From the NCBI RefSeq assembly GCF_024223415.1, contig NZ_CP100500.1: 64,000 nt of DNA. The stretch is one strand, 5' to 3'. A program made the position numbers and the translations under genes. Origin of the DNA: Escherichia coli. Lineage in GTDB: Bacteria; Pseudomonadota; Gammaproteobacteria; Enterobacterales; Enterobacteriaceae. The notes beneath the pieces were generated by a model, which ran no database searches, was not told the DNA's origin, and was given only the letters and a program-made list of their open reading frames with translations. Shown here one piece after another: positions 44,533-59,848 of this stretch; positions within the stretch are counted from its first letter, which is position 1, and the number at the start of each line of letters is the position of its first letter.

Positions 44533-45426
44533 ATGACGAATTTAAAAGCAGTTATTCCTGTAGCGGGTCTTGGGATGCATATGTTGCCTGCCACTAAGGC
44601 GATTCCCAAAGAGATGCTACCGATCGTCGACAAGCCTATGATTCAGTACATTGTTGACGAGATTGTGGCTGCAGGGATCAAAGAAATCCTCCTGGTAACT
44701 CATGCGTCCAAGAACGCGGTCGAAAACCACTTCGACACCTCTTATGAATTAGAATCTCTCCTTGAACAGCGCGTAAAGCGTCAATTGCTTGCGGAAGTGC
44801 AGTCCATCTGTCCACCGGGCGTGACCATTATGAACGTGCGTCAGGGCGAACCTTTAGGTTTGGGTCACTCCATTTTATGTGCACGACCCGCCATTGGTGA
44901 CAATCCATTTGTCGTGGTGCTGCCGGACGTTGTGATCGACGACGCCAGCGCCGACCCGCTGCGCTACAACCTTGCTGCCATGATTGCACGATTCAACGAA
45001 ACGGGTCGTAGCCAGGTGCTGGCAAAACGTATGCCGGGTGACCTCTCTGAATACTCGGTCATCCAGACCAAAGAACCACTGGACCGTGAAGGTAAAGTCA
45101 GCCGCATTGTTGAATTTATCGAAAAACCGGATCAGCCGCAGATGTTGGACTCAGACATCATGGCCGTTGGTCGTTATGTGCTTTCTGCCGATATTTGGCC
45201 GGAACTTGAACGCACGCAGCCAGGTGCATGGGGGCGTATTCAGCTGACTGATGCCATCGCTGAACTGGCGAAAACACAGTCCGTTGATGCCATGCTGATG
45301 ACAGGTGACAGCTACGACTGCGGTAAAAAAATGGGTTATATGCAGGCATTTGTGAAGTATGGACTACGCAACCTCAAAGAAGGGGCGAAGTTCCGTAAAG
45401 GGATTGAGAAGCTGTTAAGCGAATAA
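44533..45426 (+). CDS. galF: UTP-glucose-1-phosphate uridylyltransferase homolog GalF
   Basis: ORF track starts at GTG 44521; ATG at 44533 gives [30 protein letters not shown] (297 aa). Confidence 0.95.
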
Positions 45427-45683
45427 TGAAAATCTGACTGGATGTAACGGTTGATAAGAAAATTATAACGGTGGTGAAAATTCGCAGGAAAAGTAACTTG
45501 TTGCGAATATTCCTGCCGTTATTTGATATAAATAACCAGCATAACAACGAGTTAATATTAGGATTTTAGTCAAAGTTTCCTAGGATTTTTCTTGTTTCCA
45601 GAGCGGATTCGTAAGACAATTAGCGCCTTAGTTTTACGGGTTAGCGTGAGTGAGCCATGCTCGTTACATCGCAGGTGTGTATT

Positions 45684-45722
45684 CAGTGTTCTGGTAGCTG
45701 TAAAGCCAGGGGCGGTAGCGTA
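45684..45722 (+). promoter_or_regulatory. JUMPstart with ops element in the O-antigen cluster leader
   Basis: cagtgttctggtagctgtaaagccaggggcggtagcgta; ops core GGCGGTAGCGT. Confidence 0.8.
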
Positions 45723-46450
45723 CATATGAGGAAACATTTCAGCTGAAATAATTGAATATTCCAAAGCATGAGAGTTACTTAATTTGTAAAAGTGCTACAG
45801 TACAATAGAGAGGATCTCTGTCTTCATATTGTTTGCGATCATCTCAGATGAAGTTATTGATTTCATCTTTTAATAGAAGAACTGAATAGAATATGTATGG
45901 CATTATCATTTTGAACAATAATAATAGAATAAAAGGAAGACATCGAAATGGTGGTCAAACATTACATCAGTTCTATTGATTTGACAGCAGAGAAGTCTGC
46001 CACAGCGAACCAAAATTACTGACTCGTAGAGAAGAAGTTGCACTGGCTGCTGAATGGTAATGGATGAAGACGACAGAGAAATAAGAAAAGAAAACTCAGC
46101 AGAATTACCTTCAGGGATATAGCGCATCACTATTTATGTATTGACTAAAGATAAAGCATTTAAGAAAGGTTAAGGTGTAAGGTGTGAAAAGCAGCCATGG
46201 GTAAGGTTCGTTTCGCACAGGCGTTACTTACAGTAGATGGTCGGCACATCGTAAGACTTGGTCTGATTGCCAGATCATATGTGAGACATCAGAAAAAATT
46301 TAAGCAAATATATAAACAGTAGGTGATGTTGTTAAAGTATAAAACAGATATGGTAGTCAAATAAAGCAAAGTATCGTTGGAAAAATATCTGTAAAATCCC
46401 TGGTGCGTTCACGTGAGTTAGAGTAAAAGTAATGAGGAGGTTCTATTTTT

Positions 46451-47551
46451 ATGAGTTTTGAAAATTGGTATATAAAAGATATTGAACCATATAAACTGGC
46501 TAGTCATAAAGTATGGGACGATGTTTGCAACCGAGATATATTAAAATTAGATTGGAATGAAGCAACTATTCCTGCTAGTCCGTATGTAAAGAAAAGAATT
46601 TTAGAAACTATTGATAAAATAGAGTTTAGATATTACCCAAACGTAAACAACATGGAGTTGTTAACAGCTATCGCGGGATATACTCAACTCAACATAGAAA
46701 ATATTCAATATTTTCCAAGTTCTGATGCTGCACATGAATATATAGCATCAGTATTCTTAACATCAGAAGATAGAGTGTTAATATTGTCCCCGACATATGA
46801 TAATTTCAGGCTAACCTGTCAAAGTAGAGGGGCGGAAATATCGTATGTTAATTGTTTTGATGGGGCGTTTCAATTCCAGAGTGAATTATTTATAAATGTT
46901 TTGAAAGAAACAAAGCCTAAAATTGCATATATGTGTAACCCTAACAATCCGACGGGTTCAATAATAAGGCGGGAATATATAAAGAAAATATTAACTCTTT
47001 TTCCTGATATCTTGTTTGTTTTAGATGAGGCTTATATTGAATTTTCATCTGGTTCATGTGGTGATTTTGTTAAGGAATATGATAATTTGATAGTATCAAG
47101 AACCTTCTCGAAGGCATTTGCGCTGGCCAATTTTAGGATTGGTTATATATTGGCTTCACCTAAACTTATAGTTTCAATTAATAAAATAAGAAATTCTAAG
47201 AATGTAACGACATTATCACAAGAGGCTGCAGTTGCTGCATTGCATGATTCTCAATATATGCAAGCTTATGTTAATGAGGTGATTGTAGCGCGACAATACT
47301 TTATTGAAGAGATAAATAGAAGGTTTGGAGATAAGCTGATAGCATATGAAAGTCATGGTAATTTTGTTCTTGTAAAATGCTCCTCGGAAATACTAAAAAA
47401 AACATTAATAAAAGGCCTGGAGGAACAAGATATTTTCATAAGAGATTTGTCACACAAGGAGCTCAATGGTTTACATATAAGGATTACTATTGGAACACGG
47501 ACTCAAATGAGGCAGGTGCTTAATGTTATTGAAAATATTATTGGTCAATAA
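46451..47551 (+). CDS. PLP-dependent class I/II aminotransferase-fold enzyme, HisC/CobD-like
   Basis: 366 aa; motifs CNPNNPTG, DEAYIEF and SRTFSKAFALANFRIGY (candidate PLP-lysine); low-GC codon usage. Confidence 0.8.
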   Translation: MSFENWYIKDIEPYKLASHKVWDDVCNRDILKLDWNEATIPASPYVKKRILETIDKIEFRYYPNVNNMELLTAIAGYTQLNIENIQYFPSSDAAHEYIASVFLTSEDRVLILSPTYDNFRLTCQSRGAEISYVNCFDGAFQFQSELFINVLKETKPKIAYMCNPNNPTGSIIRREYIKKILTLFPDILFVLDEAYIEFSSGSCGDFVKEYDNLIVSRTFSKAFALANFRIGYILASPKLIVSINKIRNSKNVTTLSQEAAVAALHDSQYMQAYVNEVIVARQYFIEEINRRFGDKLIAYESHGNFVLVKCSSEILKKTLIKGLEEQDIFIRDLSHKELNGLHIRITIGTRTQMRQVLNVIENIIGQ

Positions 47552-47587
47552 TATGTTTGCAGGCGCTCTTTATTATGTTGGTCAGCG

Positions 47588-48277
47588 ATGAAATATAAAT
47601 ACGCTTTTTTTGATTTTTGTGAAACGTTGGTGGATTTACAAACTGCTGATGATTACATTTCTGATGTGATTATTAAGAAGGAAGGCCGATGGAGTTATAA
47701 GCTTGCGATTATTGGCTTCTTAAGGAATAGATGGGTTAATAAATTATTTAATAAATTGTTTAACAATTATGATAACCCTAAGTCTTTGATTTTGAAGCTG
47801 GTTAAAGGGTTTGACTATGGGGTCTTTTCTGTTGCTGCAGAAGAATATTGTAAAAAACTAATGGAGTATTACTTAATTGATGATGTTATTTCGGAGATGC
47901 TAGAATTAAAAAAAAAGAATTATCAAATAATCATTGTCTCTGGGGGATATGATATATATATAAAGCATTTTTTTTCCTCAGTTGTAGATAAGGTTATAGC
48001 TACCGAGATTGATTTTTCTGATTCTAAGTGTCTGGGGAAAATATCAGGTATTGATTGTTTAGGTGTGAACAAGTTAAACAAAATAAAGAAATATATTGAT
48101 GTCAACACAATAGATTATGAAAATTCCTACGTCTTTTCTGACAGTAAAACAGATTTGCCTCTTTTTTCGTTAGCAAAGAATAAAATTGTCATATCTAAGA
48201 AAAAAAACAAATCGTGGGTTAATGAGCAAAATGAAGAATTTATTGAAAAAGTATGGTGTCCTAAAAAAATATGCTAA
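47588..48277 (+). CDS. HAD-superfamily hydrolase, probable phosphatase
   Basis: 229 aa; HAD motif I-like AFFDFCETL (second Asp replaced by Cys), motif II IVSGG, motif IV-like FSDSKTDLPLF. Confidence 0.7.
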   Translation: MKYKYAFFDFCETLVDLQTADDYISDVIIKKEGRWSYKLAIIGFLRNRWVNKLFNKLFNNYDNPKSLILKLVKGFDYGVFSVAAEEYCKKLMEYYLIDDVISEMLELKKKNYQIIIVSGGYDIYIKHFFSSVVDKVIATEIDFSDSKCLGKISGIDCLGVNKLNKIKKYIDVNTIDYENSYVFSDSKTDLPLFSLAKNKIVISKKKNKSWVNEQNEEFIEKVWCPKKIC

Positions 48278-49145
48278 GAAGTATTATTACTATACTTCTT
48301 CTTTTTTAATGTCAGATGAATTATATATAAAAAGGAAGTTTAAGAAAATTTTCGGATATGCTTTGGATATCAATAATCCAAAAACAATGAATGAAAAGAT
48401 GCAATGGATGAAGTTACATATGCATCCTCAGGAATATAATATTTTTGCAGATAAACTTCTTGTTAGAAAATACGTGGAAGAAAAGATTGGTAAAAATATA
48501 CTAATACCTATTTTTGCAGTATACGAAAGTGAAGCCGAATTAAATATAGATTCTTTGCCTGACGAACCATTTATCATTAAGACGAATCATGATAGTTCTG
48601 GTGGAATAATCGTGAGAAACAAATCAGAACTCAATATAAAGGATGCAAAAAGTTTTTGTCGATTTAATTTGAATAACAATCATTATTATATATCAAGAGA
48701 GAAACATTATAAACATTTAGACAGAAAAATTATTATAGAGAAGCTCCTTCTTACAAAATCCGGAAAAATCCCAAATGATTATAAAATAAATTGTATAAAT
48801 GGGCGTGCTGAATTTATATATTGCTCTATTGATAGAGAGGGGAAAAATTACCGAAAGATTTATGACAGGTCTTGGTGTGAAATGGATTTTAAATGGGGAA
48901 ATAAAGATGAGTTTGAGCATAAATTTACTGGGCCCAATATTGAAAAGCCTGATAATTTAGATAAAATGATTGAGTATGCGGAGATATTATCAATGGGGTT
49001 TCCTTATCTAAGAATAGATTTATACAATGTTGATGGGGAAATATATTTAGGAGAAATAACTATTTATCATGGGGGAGGGTTTGATGTTATTGAGCCAAAA
49101 GAATATGACTTATTTTTTGGTAATAAGATTCATTTAGAAAAATGA
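48222..49145 (+). CDS. TupA-like ATP-grasp amidoligase (start uncertain; ORF track begins at TTG 48186)
   Basis: N-terminal NPKTMNEKMQWMKL matches the conserved P-x-TFNEKIQWLK region of TupA-like ATP-grasp proteins; overlaps the upstream HAD ORF by 56-92 nt in another frame. Confidence 0.7.
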   Translation: MSKMKNLLKKYGVLKKYAKKYYYYTSSFLMSDELYIKRKFKKIFGYALDINNPKTMNEKMQWMKLHMHPQEYNIFADKLLVRKYVEEKIGKNILIPIFAVYESEAELNIDSLPDEPFIIKTNHDSSGGIIVRNKSELNIKDAKSFCRFNLNNNHYYISREKHYKHLDRKIIIEKLLLTKSGKIPNDYKINCINGRAEFIYCSIDREGKNYRKIYDRSWCEMDFKWGNKDEFEHKFTGPNIEKPDNLDKMIEYAEILSMGFPYLRIDLYNVDGEIYLGEITIYHGGGFDVIEPKEYDLFFGNKIHLEK

Positions 49146-50362
49146 AAAATATTATAAAGAATGGGCTGTCTCTTTCTTTTATAAAGGCAGTGACTTTGCT
49201 ATTTCCTATCGCCATTGTACCTATCCTGATATCAAAGATAGGAATGGATAAATATGGGGAAGTTGTATTTATCACTGCAATATATTCATATTTTATTAAT
49301 GTGGTTAGCTTTGGATTTGAAGAATCAGCCACTCAAGTCTTGGCAAAGAATCACTTCTCAGGTTTGTCGAAAAATGAATATATTTTGTCTGTTATCGTGC
49401 TCAAGGGCATAATTGCTGTTTCTATAATTTTTGTCATTTGTGGTTTGTATTTTTTGGGGATGGGAGGAGATTTTTTCTCATTGCTATTTTGTATTACCAT
49501 CGTCGCTGAGGTTTTTAATCCCTTATGGTTTTATCAGGGGGTCGAAAGAATTCATATTATCTCAGTGAGCTCTATAGTATCAAAATCATTATATACAATA
49601 TTAATATGTCTGTTTGTGAGATGTAATAATGATTATTACCTTGTTCCTGTATTTTTAGGCGGTGCGAATATTCTTTCTTATGTCTATCCGTTTGTTGCTA
49701 TGTGTAATGAGTGTAAATTTCGGCGCAATGACTTGAACTATAATAATTTGAAAAAAGTATTATTAGACTCAGTTAGTATATTCCTTACTAATTTTATCCC
49801 AACATTGAAAGATAAGATAGGTGCTATATTGATAGGTTTATCTTTCTCCATGAATATCGTAGCGATTTATGATATAATTATAAAAATACTTAATTTATTG
49901 TTTATTCCAGTAAATGTAATAAATGCATCGTTCTATCCAACACTTTCCAGGAAGAGAGAAAAGAAAATATTAATGCAATTAATGTATATAAATTTGGGTT
50001 ATGCTATTTTTGCATTTGTTATCGTATGTAATTTTTTTGATTATTTTTCCAATATCTACTTCCAATCCTATTCAGCGTATTCCGATGCTGTAAAAATAAT
50101 ATCTGTGTCTGTTGTTTTTTACTCAGTGAGTTTAATGATTGGAAAAAATATCCTATTGGTCACTGGTTTTTATCATCATGTGCTGCTCAGTATTATATTA
50201 TCGACAGGATTTTATTTGATGTTTGTCTGCTTTATGTATTCTCTTAGTTCATTGAGTATATATTCATTATGCTTTTTAACAACAGCATCATTCTTATTTG
50301 AAATGCTGGTTAGGTTAATTATGTTAAAGAAGACTAAGGCCTTGTTTTTTTTTAAATATTAA
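49142..50362 (+). CDS. wzx: O-antigen flippase Wzx
   Basis: 406 aa polytopic membrane protein, MOP-family-like; ATGA overlap with the upstream gene. Confidence 0.8.
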   Translation: MKNIIKNGLSLSFIKAVTLLFPIAIVPILISKIGMDKYGEVVFITAIYSYFINVVSFGFEESATQVLAKNHFSGLSKNEYILSVIVLKGIIAVSIIFVICGLYFLGMGGDFFSLLFCITIVAEVFNPLWFYQGVERIHIISVSSIVSKSLYTILICLFVRCNNDYYLVPVFLGGANILSYVYPFVAMCNECKFRRNDLNYNNLKKVLLDSVSIFLTNFIPTLKDKIGAILIGLSFSMNIVAIYDIIIKILNLLFIPVNVINASFYPTLSRKREKKILMQLMYINLGYAIFAFVIVCNFFDYFSNIYFQSYSAYSDAVKIISVSVVFYSVSLMIGKNILLVTGFYHHVLLSIILSTGFYLMFVCFMYSLSSLSIYSLCFLTTASFLFEMLVRLIMLKKTKALFFFKY

Positions 50363-50376
50363 TTAGGTATGGAAGT

Positions 50377-51246
50377 ATGAAAACAGTGTCAGTAATCATT
50401 CCAACATATAGGGATTGGGAAAGATTATCTAAATGTTTAAATGCAATAAAAAAACAAAGATATCCCGCAGAGTTTATTCAGGTAATAGTCATTAATAATG
50501 ATCCATTTGATGATAATCCATTTATAAATAGTGATGAATATAAAAATGTAAAGTTTTTAGTAGAGGGAAAGGTGGGTTCTTATGCAGCAAGAAATAAAGG
50601 CCTAAATTATGCAAAAGGGGAGATTATAGCATTCACTGATTCAGATTGTGTCCCAGATGAGTTTTGGATTTCAAATGCTGTTCGACATTTTGAAGAAAAT
50701 AGTAAATGCACAAGAATTGGTGGGAAAATTGAATTATTTTTCAAAGGTAATGTAAGTAAAACCCTAGCTGAATTTTATGAACAAAGTTATGCTTTCCGGC
50801 AGAAAGAGTTTGTTCAACGACAGGGAATGGCTGCAACAGCTAATATGTTCTCATATAAGAAGGTTTTTGATGATATATCATATTTCAATGATTCATTGAT
50901 GTCGGGAGGAGATGCCGAATGGGGAGTTAGGGCAAATAATAAAGGATATAGAATAGACTATTGTGATTCTGTCACTGTTTATCATCCGGCAAGAGAATCG
51001 ATGAAACAAATTTTTATAAAAAATCGAAGGGAAGCCAGTGGTAAAATAAAAAATAAACGAAAAGTGTTAATCAATTTTGTAATGTCATTGCTCCCACCAT
51101 TAAAATCGTTGATGTATATTAGGTATCATGGGAATAGTATATATAAAGTATTAATTGCATTTTTTATTAGATATTTAATGAGGATTGATACGGCTATAGA
51201 ACAAATCCGGGTTGTGTTTTTTAATAAGAAAGCCGAGCGATTATGA
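50377..51246 (+). CDS. Glycosyltransferase family 2
   Basis: 289 aa; VSVIIPTYRDWERLSKCLNAI and FTDSDC motifs. Confidence 0.8.
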   Translation: MKTVSVIIPTYRDWERLSKCLNAIKKQRYPAEFIQVIVINNDPFDDNPFINSDEYKNVKFLVEGKVGSYAARNKGLNYAKGEIIAFTDSDCVPDEFWISNAVRHFEENSKCTRIGGKIELFFKGNVSKTLAEFYEQSYAFRQKEFVQRQGMAATANMFSYKKVFDDISYFNDSLMSGGDAEWGVRANNKGYRIDYCDSVTVYHPARESMKQIFIKNRREASGKIKNKRKVLINFVMSLLPPLKSLMYIRYHGNSIYKVLIAFFIRYLMRIDTAIEQIRVVFFNKKAERL

Positions 51247-52487
51247 AAATGTTTTTTTTTGTTCTTTGCGTGTTCTTTTTAATAAATGGCTTTTATATAT
51301 ATCCGCCATTTAATAGTGCAATTTTAGCACCGATGTTAGCTTTATTGGGAGCACTAACATTAAGGAAGAAAATAACGATAAAGCCCTTTTCTGACTTGTT
51401 AGATCCTTCATTTTTATTTTGGTTTCTTTTTGTAAGTTGTTATTGTCTATCAATTGCAGTTTTCTCAAAAACATATGACTTATCATATGTAAAGAACTTT
51501 ATATCACAACTTGTTCAATTTGCTATTATTTTATTTAGTTTTTTTATGTTATCATCAATAGATGGAGCATTTTCTCTTAAGATAGAAAAAATTATCGTAT
51601 ATAGCTTCGTTTTACAATCTGTTATTCAGATAGCAGCATTTCTATATCCTGGAATAGCCGATATTATTCATTTATTTTATGATAAAGATAAAGTAGAGCG
51701 ATTATACATCAATTACGCAGGAGTAAGAGGACTGGCGTTGACTGGTTCCCCAGGGTGGGGAATATCTGTTGGATATGCTATATCATTTTTACTTTTTGTT
51801 AAAGCATTTGTTATTAATCAGAAATTGAAGTTTTCTAGTATTATAGTTGCAATACTACTTTTAATCGGTGCAATGTTTACTGGTCGCAGTGCTTTTATTG
51901 GTGTTATTTTCGGTGGGGGGTATTATCTTGTATCAGGAGAGGATATTACAAAAAAAATCAAAACTATAATTCTATTTTTAATTCTTCCTGCATTAATATG
52001 CATGTTAACATATATAATGTTGCCATCCCTATCCTCACTATTCGGAGATAAGGTTTTCCCATTTGTCTTTGAGTTCTATTATAAATACAAAGACACAGGT
52101 GAGTTATCTACTAAATCTACAGATATTTTGTTGAATATGTGGGATCTTAACGTTGATGTTACTGACATTGTGTTCGGTACAGGTAATTTCACAAATGACA
52201 AAACTGGAGAGTATTATTTCGGTAGTGATGTGGGATATCTCCGGAATTTATTGTATGGTGGTTTTTTTTGGATGTTCACTCTTTTTATTTATCAGGTTTC
52301 ATTATTTGGACAACTGCGTTGGTGGAAAAAAAGAAAGGATATTAAATTATTTGTATTCATTTTTATAGCCATGTTAATGTTGCTTGAGATGAAAGCAATG
52401 GCCATAGGATATAATAAATATGTGTTTACAGTTTCTATTTTATTAGGATTGTCATTTAAAGAGAGATACAGAAATGCTTACCAATAA
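51243..52487 (+). CDS. wzy: O-antigen polymerase Wzy
   Basis: 414 aa, about 10-12 predicted TM segments with a large loop; no similarity to Wzx; position. Confidence 0.7.
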   Translation: MKMFFFVLCVFFLINGFYIYPPFNSAILAPMLALLGALTLRKKITIKPFSDLLDPSFLFWFLFVSCYCLSIAVFSKTYDLSYVKNFISQLVQFAIILFSFFMLSSIDGAFSLKIEKIIVYSFVLQSVIQIAAFLYPGIADIIHLFYDKDKVERLYINYAGVRGLALTGSPGWGISVGYAISFLLFVKAFVINQKLKFSSIIVAILLLIGAMFTGRSAFIGVIFGGGYYLVSGEDITKKIKTIILFLILPALICMLTYIMLPSLSSLFGDKVFPFVFEFYYKYKDTGELSTKSTDILLNMWDLNVDVTDIVFGTGNFTNDKTGEYYFGSDVGYLRNLLYGGFFWMFTLFIYQVSLFGQLRWWKKRKDIKLFVFIFIAMLMLLEMKAMAIGYNKYVFTVSILLGLSFKERYRNAYQ

Positions 52488-53385
52488 AGTCTCTGTTGTT
52501 ATTCCGACACATAGTCGGCCTAATCTTTTGCGAAAAGCTATAGAAAGTGTTTTGAATCAGACATATAAGCCATGTGAAATTATTGTTGTTGATGATACAG
52601 AATCTGAAGAAACCGCTCGATGTTTATCTGTCATAAATAGCGATATACCTATTAGGCTAAAGTATAACACTTCTTCTGGTGCCGGCTCGTCTAGGAATTT
52701 AGGTGCAAAGATTGCTAATGGTGATTTTGTGGCTTTCTTGGATGACGATGATCTCTGGCTTCCAACTAAATTAGAAACGCAGATGTATGAATTGCGGCAT
52801 ACACAATATGATGCAATTTTTTGTCAGATGATAATAAATTATGAAGGGGTAAACATACAATATTCTACTCGAGCCAAAAATGTAGCTGAACCATTAAAAG
52901 AAATATGTATTGAAAACTTTATTGGTGCCACAATATCCTGTGTTATACGCCGTTCAATTTTTATGAAATTAGGAGGGTTTGATGAAAGATTCAAGGCTAG
53001 AGAGGAATATGATTTATGGATTCGAGTTATTCAATCTAATGCTAAAATTAAAATAATAGAAAAACCATTAACTATTTCAAATCGTTCTTTTGTACGGAAT
53101 CGTATTTCTTCTAACATAAATAATTATGAGCACGGAATATCACTTATTAACGAAAAATATGCTCGATTGATTACTGAAATATTAACTCCCAATGAGAGAA
53201 GAATAAGATTATCGAAACAATATGAATTTCTAGCTGCTCAGGCAATATCTTTAGGCCTTAAAATGACAAGCTCAAAGTATTATTTTAAGTCTTTTTTAAC
53301 AATTCCTTCTCTTAAATCGTTATTTCTTTCATTGTTGAGTATTATTTCTCCGCTAATGATAATAAAAATTAGAAGCAAACTTTAA
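52474..53385 (+). CDS. Glycosyltransferase family 2
   Basis: 303 aa; VSVVIPTHSRPNLLRKAIESVLNQTY and FLDDDD motifs. Confidence 0.8.
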   Translation: MLTNKVSVVIPTHSRPNLLRKAIESVLNQTYKPCEIIVVDDTESEETARCLSVINSDIPIRLKYNTSSGAGSSRNLGAKIANGDFVAFLDDDDLWLPTKLETQMYELRHTQYDAIFCQMIINYEGVNIQYSTRAKNVAEPLKEICIENFIGATISCVIRRSIFMKLGGFDERFKAREEYDLWIRVIQSNAKIKIIEKPLTISNRSFVRNRISSNINNYEHGISLINEKYARLITEILTPNERRIRLSKQYEFLAAQAISLGLKMTSSKYYFKSFLTIPSLKSLFLSLLSIISPLMIIKIRSKL

Positions 53386-53427
53386 TTATATCATCATTAT
53401 TAGACAGTCAATAACTGTGGAGTTAAC

Positions 53428-54690
53428 ATGAGTTCTGGGTTTAATTCTATTGAAAAGAACTTTTCAAGATTTTTATCTTACTTTCCAGGGATAAAAAAAA
53501 TAATTAAAAAAGCTTACATAAGGATAAATTTTTATATCTACAAAAAAGAACATAAAGTAAAAAGTGATTACAGCATCCATACGATTGATATCGATAGTTG
53601 CGAAACTTTTTTTGGATACTATGATAAATGTCCCGATAATGGTAAAGGAGATGTTATCGTTTGTGCATCGACTATATCTACCCACAACATACCTGATCCA
53701 AACAATCCGATTAAATTATATGTGTACAATCTTTGTACTAAAGATAAGGTGTTCATTGCTAATATTTCTGCATATAATTGGCAACAAGGATGTCGTGCTC
53801 ATTGGCTAAACGATGATTTACTTATTTATAACTTTTACTCTCATGAAAAGCGTAATTATTCGTCGAAAATATACTCAATCATAGAGAAAAAACATATAGC
53901 AGAGTTCTCTTTTGCGGTACAAGACAGTTTTCTTGGTAATTATTTTTTATCTATAAACTATTCTCGCTTAATGGCGTTACGCCCAGATTATGGATATAGA
54001 AATAAAAGTTTTTCTTGGGAATTGTTTGATCTGGCTAATGATGGTATATGGAAAGTCGATATTAGCTCTCGTAAGGGAGAATTAATCGTTACATTTTGTG
54101 ATATTATTAATTTTGAGTTTGAAAATAATGATGAGTATAAACATAAAGTTAACCATGTAATGATTTCTCCCGATGGTGAAAAATTTATATTTATACATCG
54201 TTATTATTATAAAGGTAAACGGAATGATAGATTAATGTTGTCAACCAAAGACGGACATTTAATTTCAGTATTAGCTAATAATAAAATGGTTAGTCATTGT
54301 TGTTGGCTTTCCAATGATAAAATTATCGGTTATTTAAGATCTGATAGTGGTGATGATAGTTATTGGGTTATTGATATAAATAATCTGGAGTCATACCAAC
54401 TCTTAGATGGTGAATTACTAAAATATGGCGATGGTCATCCATCGAATTGTAAAAATCTATTAGTGACGGATACATATCCTAATAAGTCAAGATATCAGAA
54501 ATTATTATTAGTCGATATGGATAATGATAATTACCAGGAACTTGGTGAGTTTTTACATGATCTTAGTTTTTCTGATGAGACTAGATGTGACTTACATCCT
54601 CGCTTTTCTCATGATGGCAGCATGATTTTTTTTGATTCAGTTTTTTCTGGAAAACGCAAGTTATGCTATTTACAGTTAATTAATAAATAA
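53428..54690 (+). CDS. Hypothetical protein, possibly beta-propeller-like; function unknown
   Basis: 420 aa, no GT signature recognised; repeated SPDG/SHDG-type strands (MISPDGEKFIFIH, HPRFSHDGSMIFFDS). Confidence 0.55.
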   Translation: MSSGFNSIEKNFSRFLSYFPGIKKIIKKAYIRINFYIYKKEHKVKSDYSIHTIDIDSCETFFGYYDKCPDNGKGDVIVCASTISTHNIPDPNNPIKLYVYNLCTKDKVFIANISAYNWQQGCRAHWLNDDLLIYNFYSHEKRNYSSKIYSIIEKKHIAEFSFAVQDSFLGNYFLSINYSRLMALRPDYGYRNKSFSWELFDLANDGIWKVDISSRKGELIVTFCDIINFEFENNDEYKHKVNHVMISPDGEKFIFIHRYYYKGKRNDRLMLSTKDGHLISVLANNKMVSHCCWLSNDKIIGYLRSDSGDDSYWVIDINNLESYQLLDGELLKYGDGHPSNCKNLLVTDTYPNKSRYQKLLLVDMDNDNYQELGEFLHDLSFSDETRCDLHPRFSHDGSMIFFDSVFSGKRKLCYLQLINK

Positions 54691-54695
54691 AGTGA

Positions 54696-55511
54696 TTGTA
54701 TATGAAAGTCGCAGTCGCAATGTCTGTATATAAGAATGATAATCCTATATACTTAGAGAAAGCCATTAAAAGTATATTGAATCAAACATATAAAAATATC
54801 CATTTATATATAGAGGTCGATGGAGTCATATCTCCACAATTATATCAATGTTTATCCTCTTTTATCTCATGCTCAAATATTAGTATAAATTTTAATAGTG
54901 ATTGTAAAGGATTGGCATTTAGATTAAATAATATTATTGATAAGGTTATATTTGATGGAGGATATTCGTATATTGCAAGAATGGATGCTGATGATATATC
55001 TCGACTCGATAGGATTGAAAAACAAGTAATATTTATGCAGACCCATAAGGATATTTCTGTTGTTGGTTCTGATGTTCTAGAAATAGATGAGGATGATAAT
55101 TTTTTATTTTACAAAAAAATGCATTGTGATCATGAGATCATCGTTCGAGATATTATTAAGAAATGTCCAATAAATCATCCCTCAGCATTTTTTAAAATAT
55201 CTTCATTTTATATAGTTAGATATAATTCCACCTTGAAGAACACACAGGATTATTACTTGTGGATTGATTTTATTTATAATAATTTAAAGATCTCAAACAT
55301 CAATGAGCCTTTGTTAAAATTTAGAGTGAATAGAGATTTTTATTCACGGAGAGGGTTTGATAAAGCTATCAATGATGTAAAATCACGAATATATGCCTTG
55401 CGAAAGTTGAATTGCTATTCACTAAGGAATATATTTCATATATTAATGCTTTTTTTTCTTAGAGTATCTCCGACTGTAATAAAAAAAATTGCATACAATA
55501 GACTTAGATAA
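54696..55511 (+). CDS. Glycosyltransferase family 2-like
   Basis: 271 aa; VAMSVYKNDNPIYLEKAIKSILNQTY and ARMDADDIS motifs; start may be the ATG at 54702. Confidence 0.75.
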   Translation: MYMKVAVAMSVYKNDNPIYLEKAIKSILNQTYKNIHLYIEVDGVISPQLYQCLSSFISCSNISINFNSDCKGLAFRLNNIIDKVIFDGGYSYIARMDADDISRLDRIEKQVIFMQTHKDISVVGSDVLEIDEDDNFLFYKKMHCDHEIIVRDIIKKCPINHPSAFFKISSFYIVRYNSTLKNTQDYYLWIDFIYNNLKISNINEPLLKFRVNRDFYSRRGFDKAINDVKSRIYALRKLNCYSLRNIFHILMLFFLRVSPTVIKKIAYNRLR

Positions 55512-58581: not shown

Positions 58582-59586
58582 TCAAACTTTATAGAAGTTA
58601 CGATACCATTCTACAAAGTTCTTTACCCCCTCTTTAACTGACGTTTCAGGTTTGAATCCTATTACGTCATACAGTGCTTTGGTATCAGCACTGGTTTCCA
58701 GTACATCACCGGGTTGGAGAGGCATCATATTTTTGTTGGCTTCAATACCCAGAGCCTCTTCTAACGCATTGATATAGTCCATCAACTCTACAGGCGAACT
58801 ATTACCAATGTTATAGACACGATATGGTGCTGAACTTGTTGCAGGCGAGCCTGTTTCTACAGCCCACTGTGGATCTTTTTCTGGAATAACATCCTGTAAG
58901 CGAATAATAGCTTCGGCAATATCATCAATATAAGTAAAGTCACGCTTCATTTTGCCGAAGTTGTAAACATCAATGCTTTTACCTTCCAACATGGCTTTAG
59001 TAAATTTAAATAATGCCATATCCGGACGTCCCCATGGACCATAAACCGTAAAGAAACGCAGTCCTGTGGTCGGTAAGCCATACAAATGAGAATATGTATG
59101 GGCCATGAGTTCATTCGCTTTTTTAGTTGCTGCATAAAGTGAAACAGGATGATCTACAGAGTCATCTGTAGAGAAAGGCATCATGCGGTTCATACCATAA
59201 ACAGAACTGGAGGAAGCGTAAAGTAGATGCTGAACATTATTATGGCGGCATCCTTCCAGTATGTTCAGGAATCCAATCAGGTTTGCATCTGCATATGCAT
59301 TGGGATTTTCAAGGGAGTAACGTACACCGGCTTGCGCAGCGAGGTTTATTACGCGATCGAACCGCTCCTCTGCAAACAGTGCTGCCATTTTCTCACGATC
59401 GGCCAGGTCAATTTTATAAAAACTGAAATTGTCGTGCTTGAGTAAATCAAGTCGTGCTTGTTTGAGGTTGACATCGTAATAATCATTTAAGTTGTCAATG
59501 CCTACAACCTGATGACCAGCTGCAAGAAGCCGTTTACTTACATAGAAACCGATAAAGCCAGCAGCTCCCGTAACCAGAAATTTCAT
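58582..59586 (-). CDS. gla: UDP-glucuronate 4-epimerase (NAD-dependent SDR epimerase, Gla/CapI-like)
   Basis: 334 aa; [21 protein letters not shown] Rossmann motif and YxxxK (YAATKKANE); position between ugd and wzz. Confidence 0.8.
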
Positions 59587-59752
59587 TTATTATCCTCTCT
59601 CAGGCTTGATTATAGCCAATCTTCATCTGGCATAACTGAAAGTTAAATCATACCGTTAGACAAGAAAAAAAGATAATCGGTATCAGTTCTAAACATGGCT
59701 GTTTTTTCTGGTAACGTGCTCATTTTACAATCAAAGATGTTCTAAACTGACT

Positions 59753-59848
59753 ATACAAGCCGACGTCATTATTTCCAACCGTATGACAGAAGAGCTTAAG
59801 GATGTGGCAGATAAGGTCTACACCCGCGATCTCTTTGGCAGTGACTAA
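59753..59848 (+). pseudogene. ugd: Remnant of a second ugd 3' end (last ~30 codons) downstream of gla
   Basis: Translates to [31 protein letters not shown], near-identical to the C-terminus of the intact ugd ([29 protein letters not shown]). Confidence 0.75.

Follow-up and report, generated by a model that had tools for sequence, protein, structure and literature searches.

A decayed ISAs1-family transposase remnant in the long leader between JUMPstart/ops and the first gene of an Escherichia coli O-antigen cluster

Introduction

In an O-antigen locus of Escherichia coli, contained in the 64,000-nucleotide stretch of DNA analysed here (the window), the ops element and the first gene of the cluster are held apart by 728 bp (45723-46450), and the question is what this DNA is and whether it does anything. 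The layout runs from colanic-acid genes to galF, a 257-bp spacer, JUMPstart, the 728-bp interval and an aminotransferase gene. In operons of the JUMPstart/ops type, RfaH loads at ops, rides with the polymerase and suppresses Rho-dependent termination. An initial annotation described the interval as a long untranslated stretch without a convincing open reading frame, and named remnants of displaced genes, an sRNA or H-NS-bound regulatory DNA as its possible contents.

The leader and its landmarks

The features of the region are the following.

44533-45426, plus strand: galF, the conserved left-flank gene of the O-antigen locus (open reading frame list; RefSeq annotation of the identical locus of strain 181.1)
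45684-45722, plus strand: JUMPstart including ops (Rfam RF01707, 56.6 bits against a gathering score of 35, E = 5.7e-12, model positions 1-38 of 38)
45727-46203, plus strand: decayed internal fragment of an ISAs1-family (H-repeat/ISEc1-like) element (BLASTN, TBLASTN, NF033564 profile)
46197-46322, plus strand: 41-codon open reading frame, a chance open stretch and no gene (open reading frame list; alignment; no Pfam match)
46204-46434, plus strand: leader DNA of unassigned origin (247 nt with the Shine-Dalgarno sequence and spacer; matchless in the searches)
46435-46440, plus strand: Shine-Dalgarno sequence AGGAGG, 10 nt 5' of the ATG (read from the sequence)
46451-47551, plus strand: first O-antigen gene, encoding a hisC-like PLP-dependent aminotransferase (open reading frame; TIGR01141, E = 2e-80; RefSeq; Edwardsiella tarda orthologue)

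The 39-nt JUMPstart carries the ops motif GGCGGTAG on the coding strand 5' of the operon, ops itself (ggcggtagcgt) being read from the sequence at 45711-45721 on the plus strand, and the galF-JUMPstart flank similarity that is generic to E. coli stops at 45721-45725. With 37% A, 13% C, 22% G and 28% T (GC, 35%), the interval is AT-richer than galF (GC, 51%) and the upstream 42 kb (53%), whereas the O-antigen genes (30%) slightly exceed it in AT content. Each of its three forward frames is interrupted by 15-22 stops, and the initial description of 45723-46450 as a long stretch lacking a convincing reading frame was thus borne out in both coordinates and content. The placement of the first O-antigen gene at 46451 also held, as the open reading frame has no upstream extension and the Edwardsiella orthologue has an identical start, ATGAGTTTTGAAAAT. 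The strong AGGAGG ribosome binding site reported for this gene is present, with a spacer of 10 nt rather than the 7 nt initially given.

The galF-JUMPstart spacer (45427-45683) is only approximately 86% identical to that of K-12-type strains; no non-carrier genome matches it at more than 95%, one record standing at 95-99% and the others lower. Such divergence is unusual for an E. coli core flank and hints that the left recombination boundary of the cluster may lie in this spacer or upstream of it.

Identity and decay of the fragment

When the interval was compared by BLASTN with other loci, as the initial annotation had proposed as a search for gene remnants, two-thirds of it matched the transposase gene of the ISAs1 family (E about 1e-93 to 1e-101), a similarity that the first reading had missed. 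The 477 bp from 45727 to 46203 are 77% identical in DNA sequence to ISEc1 over 478-482 nt (E = 1e-98 to 8e-101), and ISEc1-type transposase genes, to which the fragment is 75-77% identical, occur in 5246 of 5426 complete E. coli genomes. IS coordinates refer to the complete 1291-bp copy found in an O15 strain, with its inverted repeats CAGGGAAAGATTA... and CAGGGCAAGATTA.... The fragment corresponds to nt 762-1234 of that copy and to approximately codons 206-363 of the 378-codon transposase gene, and it points the same way as the operon. TBLASTN matched it to the transposase across three frames (E = 1e-25). A frameshift-corrected pseudo-translation was recognized by the NCBIfam ISAs1 transposase model NF033564 (E = 2.6e-10, profile positions 229-313 of 314) with 40 bits, below the 70-bit cut-off of the model, as expected for a decayed C-terminal fragment. 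The same pseudo-translation had no Pfam recognition and no match at E <= 1e-5 in a collection of 5.8 billion proteins, the latter outcome being explained by the writing of stops as X, which left too few shared words.

The damage comprises at least eight in-frame stops, at least six indels (of 1, 2 and 5 nt) and frameshifts. Mismatches to ISEc1 are spread over codon positions 1, 2 and 3 as 41, 25 and 34, and GC to AT substitutions exceed AT to GC ones by 56 to 25. Their even distribution over codon positions and the GC to AT excess argue for an old fragment in neutral decay. Among themselves, intact ISEc1 copies share 96-98% identity, and the 23% divergence of the fragment built up mostly without selection on the protein.

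Neither terminal inverted repeat (CAGGGnAAGATTA...) is present, and the length is far below the approximately 1.3 kb of a full element; nor is there an intact transposase of about 378 codons, since only codons approximately 206-363 are left, broken by stops and frameshifts. The ISAs1 DDE transposase is recognizable by homology only and as a fragment. The left 761 nt of the IS are absent, where at most the 10-nt GAGGAAACAT resembles the left tip and equally resembles an internal site. The final 57 nt of the element, with its right inverted repeat, were not found 3' of the fragment (local score 14; mean of shuffled sequences, 13.2). Having no IS ends and no intact gene, the sequence is filed as an IS remnant and not as an IS element. 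The stretch 45727-46203 is a pseudogene fragment of an ISAs1-family transposase. The initial suggestion of a gene remnant was therefore right as to a pseudogene fragment, and wrong as to its source, which is the transposase and no displaced O-antigen gene; the description of the interval as untranslated also stands, as no intact conserved gene was found in it by homology.

A candidate right IS end within 46204-46450, suggested by eye when ...TCGTAAGACTTGGTCTG was placed against the ISEc1 terminus TCGTAATCTTGCCCTG, was rejected, its score being no better than those of shuffled sequences. No relative of these 247 nt was found in complete E. coli genomes outside the cluster to which they belong, and no match in plasmids or in the syntenic Edwardsiella and Photobacterium loci.

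Carriers and the O-antigen cluster

Only two of the 5426 complete E. coli genomes contain the interval at 100% identity. It has no annotation in either, an example of how decayed IS fragments of this kind go unlabelled by PGAP. The exact protein of the first gene is found in 353 blocks of a public assembly collection. Between galF and the ATG, six to seven carriers differ by 0-2 SNPs per 1024 nt, one of them (L007) also having a 1-nt indel; this near-invariance reflects recent common descent and makes no statement on constraint.

The carrier Combat11I9 was reported as O-:H28, not typeable in silico, and the cluster therefore appears to lie outside the in silico typing scheme. No O-type-specific NCBIfam model matches its Wzx or Wzy, and the cluster is not described in the O-antigen reviews searched. 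Its genes (46451-55511) encode, in order, the hisC-like aminotransferase, a HAD-IB phosphatase, a TupA-like ATP-grasp ligase, Wzx, a GT2 glycosyltransferase, a putative polymerase, a second GT2, a 420-aa protein without family and another glycosyltransferase. The first three resemble a module that would synthesize an amino compound and attach it to a uronic acid through an amide bond. In strain 181.1 (NZ_CP059907.1, L001/L006) the HAD hydrolase gene and wzx are each split in two and others are shortened, whereas they are intact in the window (47588-55511); the cluster may truly have decayed in that strain, or its assembly may contain sequencing errors. Further downstream, an NAD-dependent epimerase gene (UDP-sugar 4-epimerase-like) lies between ugd and wzz on the opposite strand (58582-59586, minus), and a 96-nt N-terminally truncated pseudogene is found just before wzzB at approximately 59733-59828 (RefSeq, identical locus).

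The extra DNA as an insertion scar

The gene order of the cluster is shared with Edwardsiella tarda and Photobacterium damselae, whose aminotransferases, the nearest to the window protein outside E. coli, are 67% and 57% identical to it, respectively. In the E. tarda cluster (GCA_048082445.1, L010), the closest one outside E. coli, gene order and lengths are the same as in the window (aminotransferase, HAD phosphatase, TupA-like ATP-grasp ligase, Wzx, GT2, putative polymerase, GT2 and so on) and a JUMPstart is again found upstream. However, it lies only 110 nt 5' of the same start codon, the leader has no similarity to the IS, and the cluster is sited after a dcuC-like gene instead of galF. 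With an Edwardsiella leader of only 110 nt, the extra approximately 620 bp in E. coli are an addition and not an ancestral leader. By this comparison of leaders, the extra DNA is read as an insertion scar.

The junction and the loss of the left part of the element

The end of the E. coli flank (45721-45725) directly abuts the start of IS similarity at 45727. The ISEc1 transposase gene (L002:2443-2466) contains, 15 nt upstream of nt 762, a JUMPstart-like stretch, GCTGTAAAAGGAAACCAGGGGCGG, which encodes AVKGNQGR and resembles the JUMPstart core GCTGTAAAGCCAGGGGCGG (window 45696-45715; local alignment P approx. 0.002 against shuffles), and in the window this core is located 12 nt upstream of the junction. 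The resemblance consists of two short blocks with a 5-nt gap between them and is visible by direct alignment only, a scan of intact ISEc1 with the Rfam JUMPstart model giving no match at E <= 10. Its first block is GCTATAAA in the O15 copy and is not kept in all ISEc1 copies. The left tip of the IS, CAGGGAAAGAT, and the internal CGAGGAAAAAT at nt 761-771 agree at 8 of 11 positions.

If a full IS had entered a few nt past ops, it would thus have created two imperfect direct repeats of approximately 45 nt, about 760 bp apart, the first formed by JUMPstart and the IS left tip and the second by the JUMPstart-like stretch and GAGGAAAAAT within the transposase gene. A deletion between them, if resolved in the last block, could generate the observed junction with ops intact. 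That the 5' truncation arose in this way is a reasonable but tentative proposal, with the odds against it: the exact junction is not predicted, a crossover within the best block, CCAGGGGCGG, would destroy ops, and ISEc1 copies differ in the first block of the JUMPstart-like stretch.

ISAs1 DNA behind ops in other E. coli genomes

The slot behind ops was searched with a query made of the galF 3' end, the spacer, JUMPstart and the fragment, and a control for orientation was obtained by reverse-complementing the IS part. The 3' part of ISAs1 was found on the same strand and within approximately 1 kb of galF/JUMPstart in 195 of 5426 complete E. coli genomes, and in the reverse orientation in none of the 5426, a 195:0 ratio that is counted by genome and may correspond to perhaps five independent insertions. 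The bias toward co-orientation of ISAs1 behind ops is suggestive.

Where the left end of the IS could be placed, it was found at no more than 7, at 10, 39, 86 and 95 nt after ops (loci among L012-L018), and the slot is occupied in at least four O-antigen gene contexts (O15 wzx; CatB-like/rfbB; GT4; the aminotransferase of strain D10). In AR_0369 (GT4 first) an ISAs1 pseudogene starts 39 nt after ops, in Z1322HEC0003 (CatB-like/rfbB first) the IS starts at 86 nt and in 2022CK-00450 (GT4 first) at 95 nt, the last two also having, before the main IS, an older relic resembling an IS left end at about +5. In NCTC9064 (NZ_LR134315.1, L013, 3113-4749) the whole O-antigen cluster is gone, and JUMPstart is followed by a 75-nt stub of a gene for an rmlB-like epimerase/dehydratase, by IS1A, by an ISAs1 transposase gene truncated at its 5' end and by gnd. 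Strain D10 (NZ_CP010157.1, L017, 1664-2155), identified separately from this query, has an unannotated leader of approximately 490 nt from ops to a PLP aminotransferase gene.

A preference of ISAs1 for the post-ops site could combine an orientation-specific site, tolerance of read-through, homology for cluster swaps and deletion guided by GCTGTAAAAGGAAACCAGGGGCGG; taken jointly, these elements make up an unlikely reading. If it were true, the few dozen nt past ops in E. coli O-antigen loci would be a preferred place where ISAs1/H-repeat elements land or are retained, strictly in one orientation, insertions behind ops would be tolerated through RfaH-modified read-through, the parked copies would provide portable homology for cluster swaps, and the JUMPstart-like stretch of the transposase gene would help to align the IS with JUMPstart, guiding deletions like that of the window.

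Proposed origin of the leader and alternative readings

With a probability of roughly 0.8, the interval is a passive ISAs1 relic that is now just a long 5' untranslated leader, read through by ops/RfaH-modified polymerase. The basis is the established identity, extent, orientation and decay of the fragment, the lack of the extra DNA in Edwardsiella, and the recurrence of co-oriented ISAs1 in the slot. According to this scheme, an ISAs1-family IS of the H-repeat/ISEc1 type would once have been present just 3' of JUMPstart/ops in operon orientation; its left approximately 760 bp and last approximately 57 bp would have been lost, and the remaining 477 bp would have decayed without selection. Transcription would start upstream of JUMPstart, RfaH would load at ops, and the RfaH-modified polymerase would cross the approximately 730-nt untranslated, C-poor and terminator-free leader into the aminotransferase gene. 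C exceeds G in only 18 of 651 78-nt windows of the interval, and such C-poor leader RNA should offer few Rho loading sites. As RfaH suppresses Rho-dependent termination, a leader of approximately 730 nt, or even the 1.3-kb IS of the O15 strain, could sit there without silencing the operon. We infer that read-through of the leader is aided by RfaH and that the interval has no present function.

That the interval instead codes for an sRNA, a structured cis-regulatory RNA or a small protein is highly improbable. It is long, it would be transcribed within the leader, and it does contain open reading frames, among them the two short ones of 64 and 74 codons on the opposite strand that the initial annotation had listed as the only ones and that were found again, without Pfam match, at 45570-45764 (64 aa) and 45906-46130 (74 aa). 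However, the 64-codon frame spans JUMPstart, the 74-codon one runs antisense to the transposase pseudogene, and the 41-codon one on the plus strand is the out-of-context tail of the transposase frame, its ATG being homologous to the Met362 codon in ISEc1 (...GCAGCCATGG aligned with the transposase gene); at 74, 64 and 41 codons these are the longest frames of the interval, all lacking a Pfam match. JUMPstart was the sole Rfam match at E <= 1 in a scan of 45300-46700, terminator-like sites are absent from both strands of the interval, and 46204-46450 folds no better than shuffled sequence (z-score, 0.36), which leaves the sRNA option of the initial annotation unsupported. A regulatory role acquired by the leader, whether as H-NS silencing DNA, as a spacer tuning RfaH and Rho or as a source of internal promoters, is less improbable and still quite unlikely. 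Low GC is typical of H-NS targets, and a 35% GC interval beside a 30% GC operon makes binding of H-NS plausible from composition; there are, moreover, two overlapping 9-of-12 sigma-70-like sites on the plus strand at 45897-45930, and the occurrence of ISAs1 here only in operon orientation could matter for expression. Yet promoter-like sites are as frequent as expected by chance (5 found against 4.7), the rest of the O-antigen cluster is equally or more AT-rich, so that the interval is not special, the substitution pattern is that of neutral decay, and in Edwardsiella the syntenic cluster functions behind a leader of 110 nt.

The fragment might also mark the crossover through which the cluster was imported into E. 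coli, its truncation having occurred in the donor or at import, a reading that is possible but doubtful. An H-repeat at gene junctions has been proposed to mediate the O-antigen recombination of Salmonella group D2 (PMC3715488), the 77% identity of the fragment, against 96-98% among resident ISEc1 copies, would fit long residence with a foreign low-GC cluster, and the low identity of the galF-JUMPstart spacer to K-12-type strains points the same way. No donor was found, however: the nearest first-gene homologues outside E. coli, those of Edwardsiella and Photobacterium, are found behind different leaders without an IS at that place, and the junction is only 6 nt beyond ops, within E. coli-type flank.

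The passive-relic reading accounts for 0.7 kb left unannotated in an O-antigen locus that is rare and goes unrecognized by in silico typing; by itself it is of little importance. For annotators, it means that 45727-46203 should be labelled as an ISAs1 pseudogene fragment rather than searched for a regulator. The presence of co-oriented ISAs1 behind ops bears on cluster exchange and on the amount of untranslated DNA that RfaH-dependent operons tolerate; only the orientation-specific clustering of ISAs1 and the JUMPstart-like stretch of the transposase gene are perhaps worth more work.

Comparison with known systems

Mobile-element remnants are well documented in O-antigen clusters. Among the anomalies catalogued over 178 E. 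coli serogroups, 23 concern mobile elements, nine gene remnants and 14 non-coding regions (PMC7685785); IS-associated replacements occur in E. coli O-antigen clusters (PMC4379981), and a novel EPEC cluster has an annotated ISAs1 transposase gene inside (PMC9705854). A remnant H-repeat was described in the O-antigen clusters of Salmonella enterica groups D2 and D3 (Reeves et al. 2013, PMC3715488, citing Xiang et al. 1994). As in the window, it belongs to the same IS family, is decayed and has been read as a relic of a cluster-building event (PMC3715488). The Salmonella remnant, however, lies mid-cluster, at the junction of D1-derived and E-derived genes, whereas that of the window is found in the 5' leader directly after JUMPstart/ops, in a cluster with no known parental clusters.

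Within E. coli, the O15 strain (NZ_CP061749.1, L012) resembles the window in having a co-oriented ISAs1/ISEc1 between JUMPstart and the first gene, there wzx. Its IS begins 10 nt after ops and is a full 1291-bp copy that retains the two inverted repeats and an uninterrupted 378-codon transposase gene and shares 96-98% identity with other ISEc1 copies, as opposed to the 477 bp of the window, which have no ends, are 77% identical and carry many stops. Strain D10 comes closer in its state of decay: like the window, it has decayed, AT-rich ISAs1 DNA right after ops and a PLP aminotransferase as the first gene. The IS starts within approximately 7 nt of ops, and the post-ops flank reads GCATAT instead of the ACATAT of the window. 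D10, however, keeps the left part of the IS (nt approximately 27-334, 67% identity), whereas the window keeps nt 762-1234, and with aminotransferases only 44% identical the two clusters are not close relatives.

H-repeat remnants and IS elements are recognized both as marks and as drivers of O-antigen cluster change (PMC3715488, PMC7685785, PMC4379981), and the fragment of the window is an ordinary, previously unannotated example of this well-known type of feature and one more, unusually decayed, case of ISAs1 DNA behind ops.
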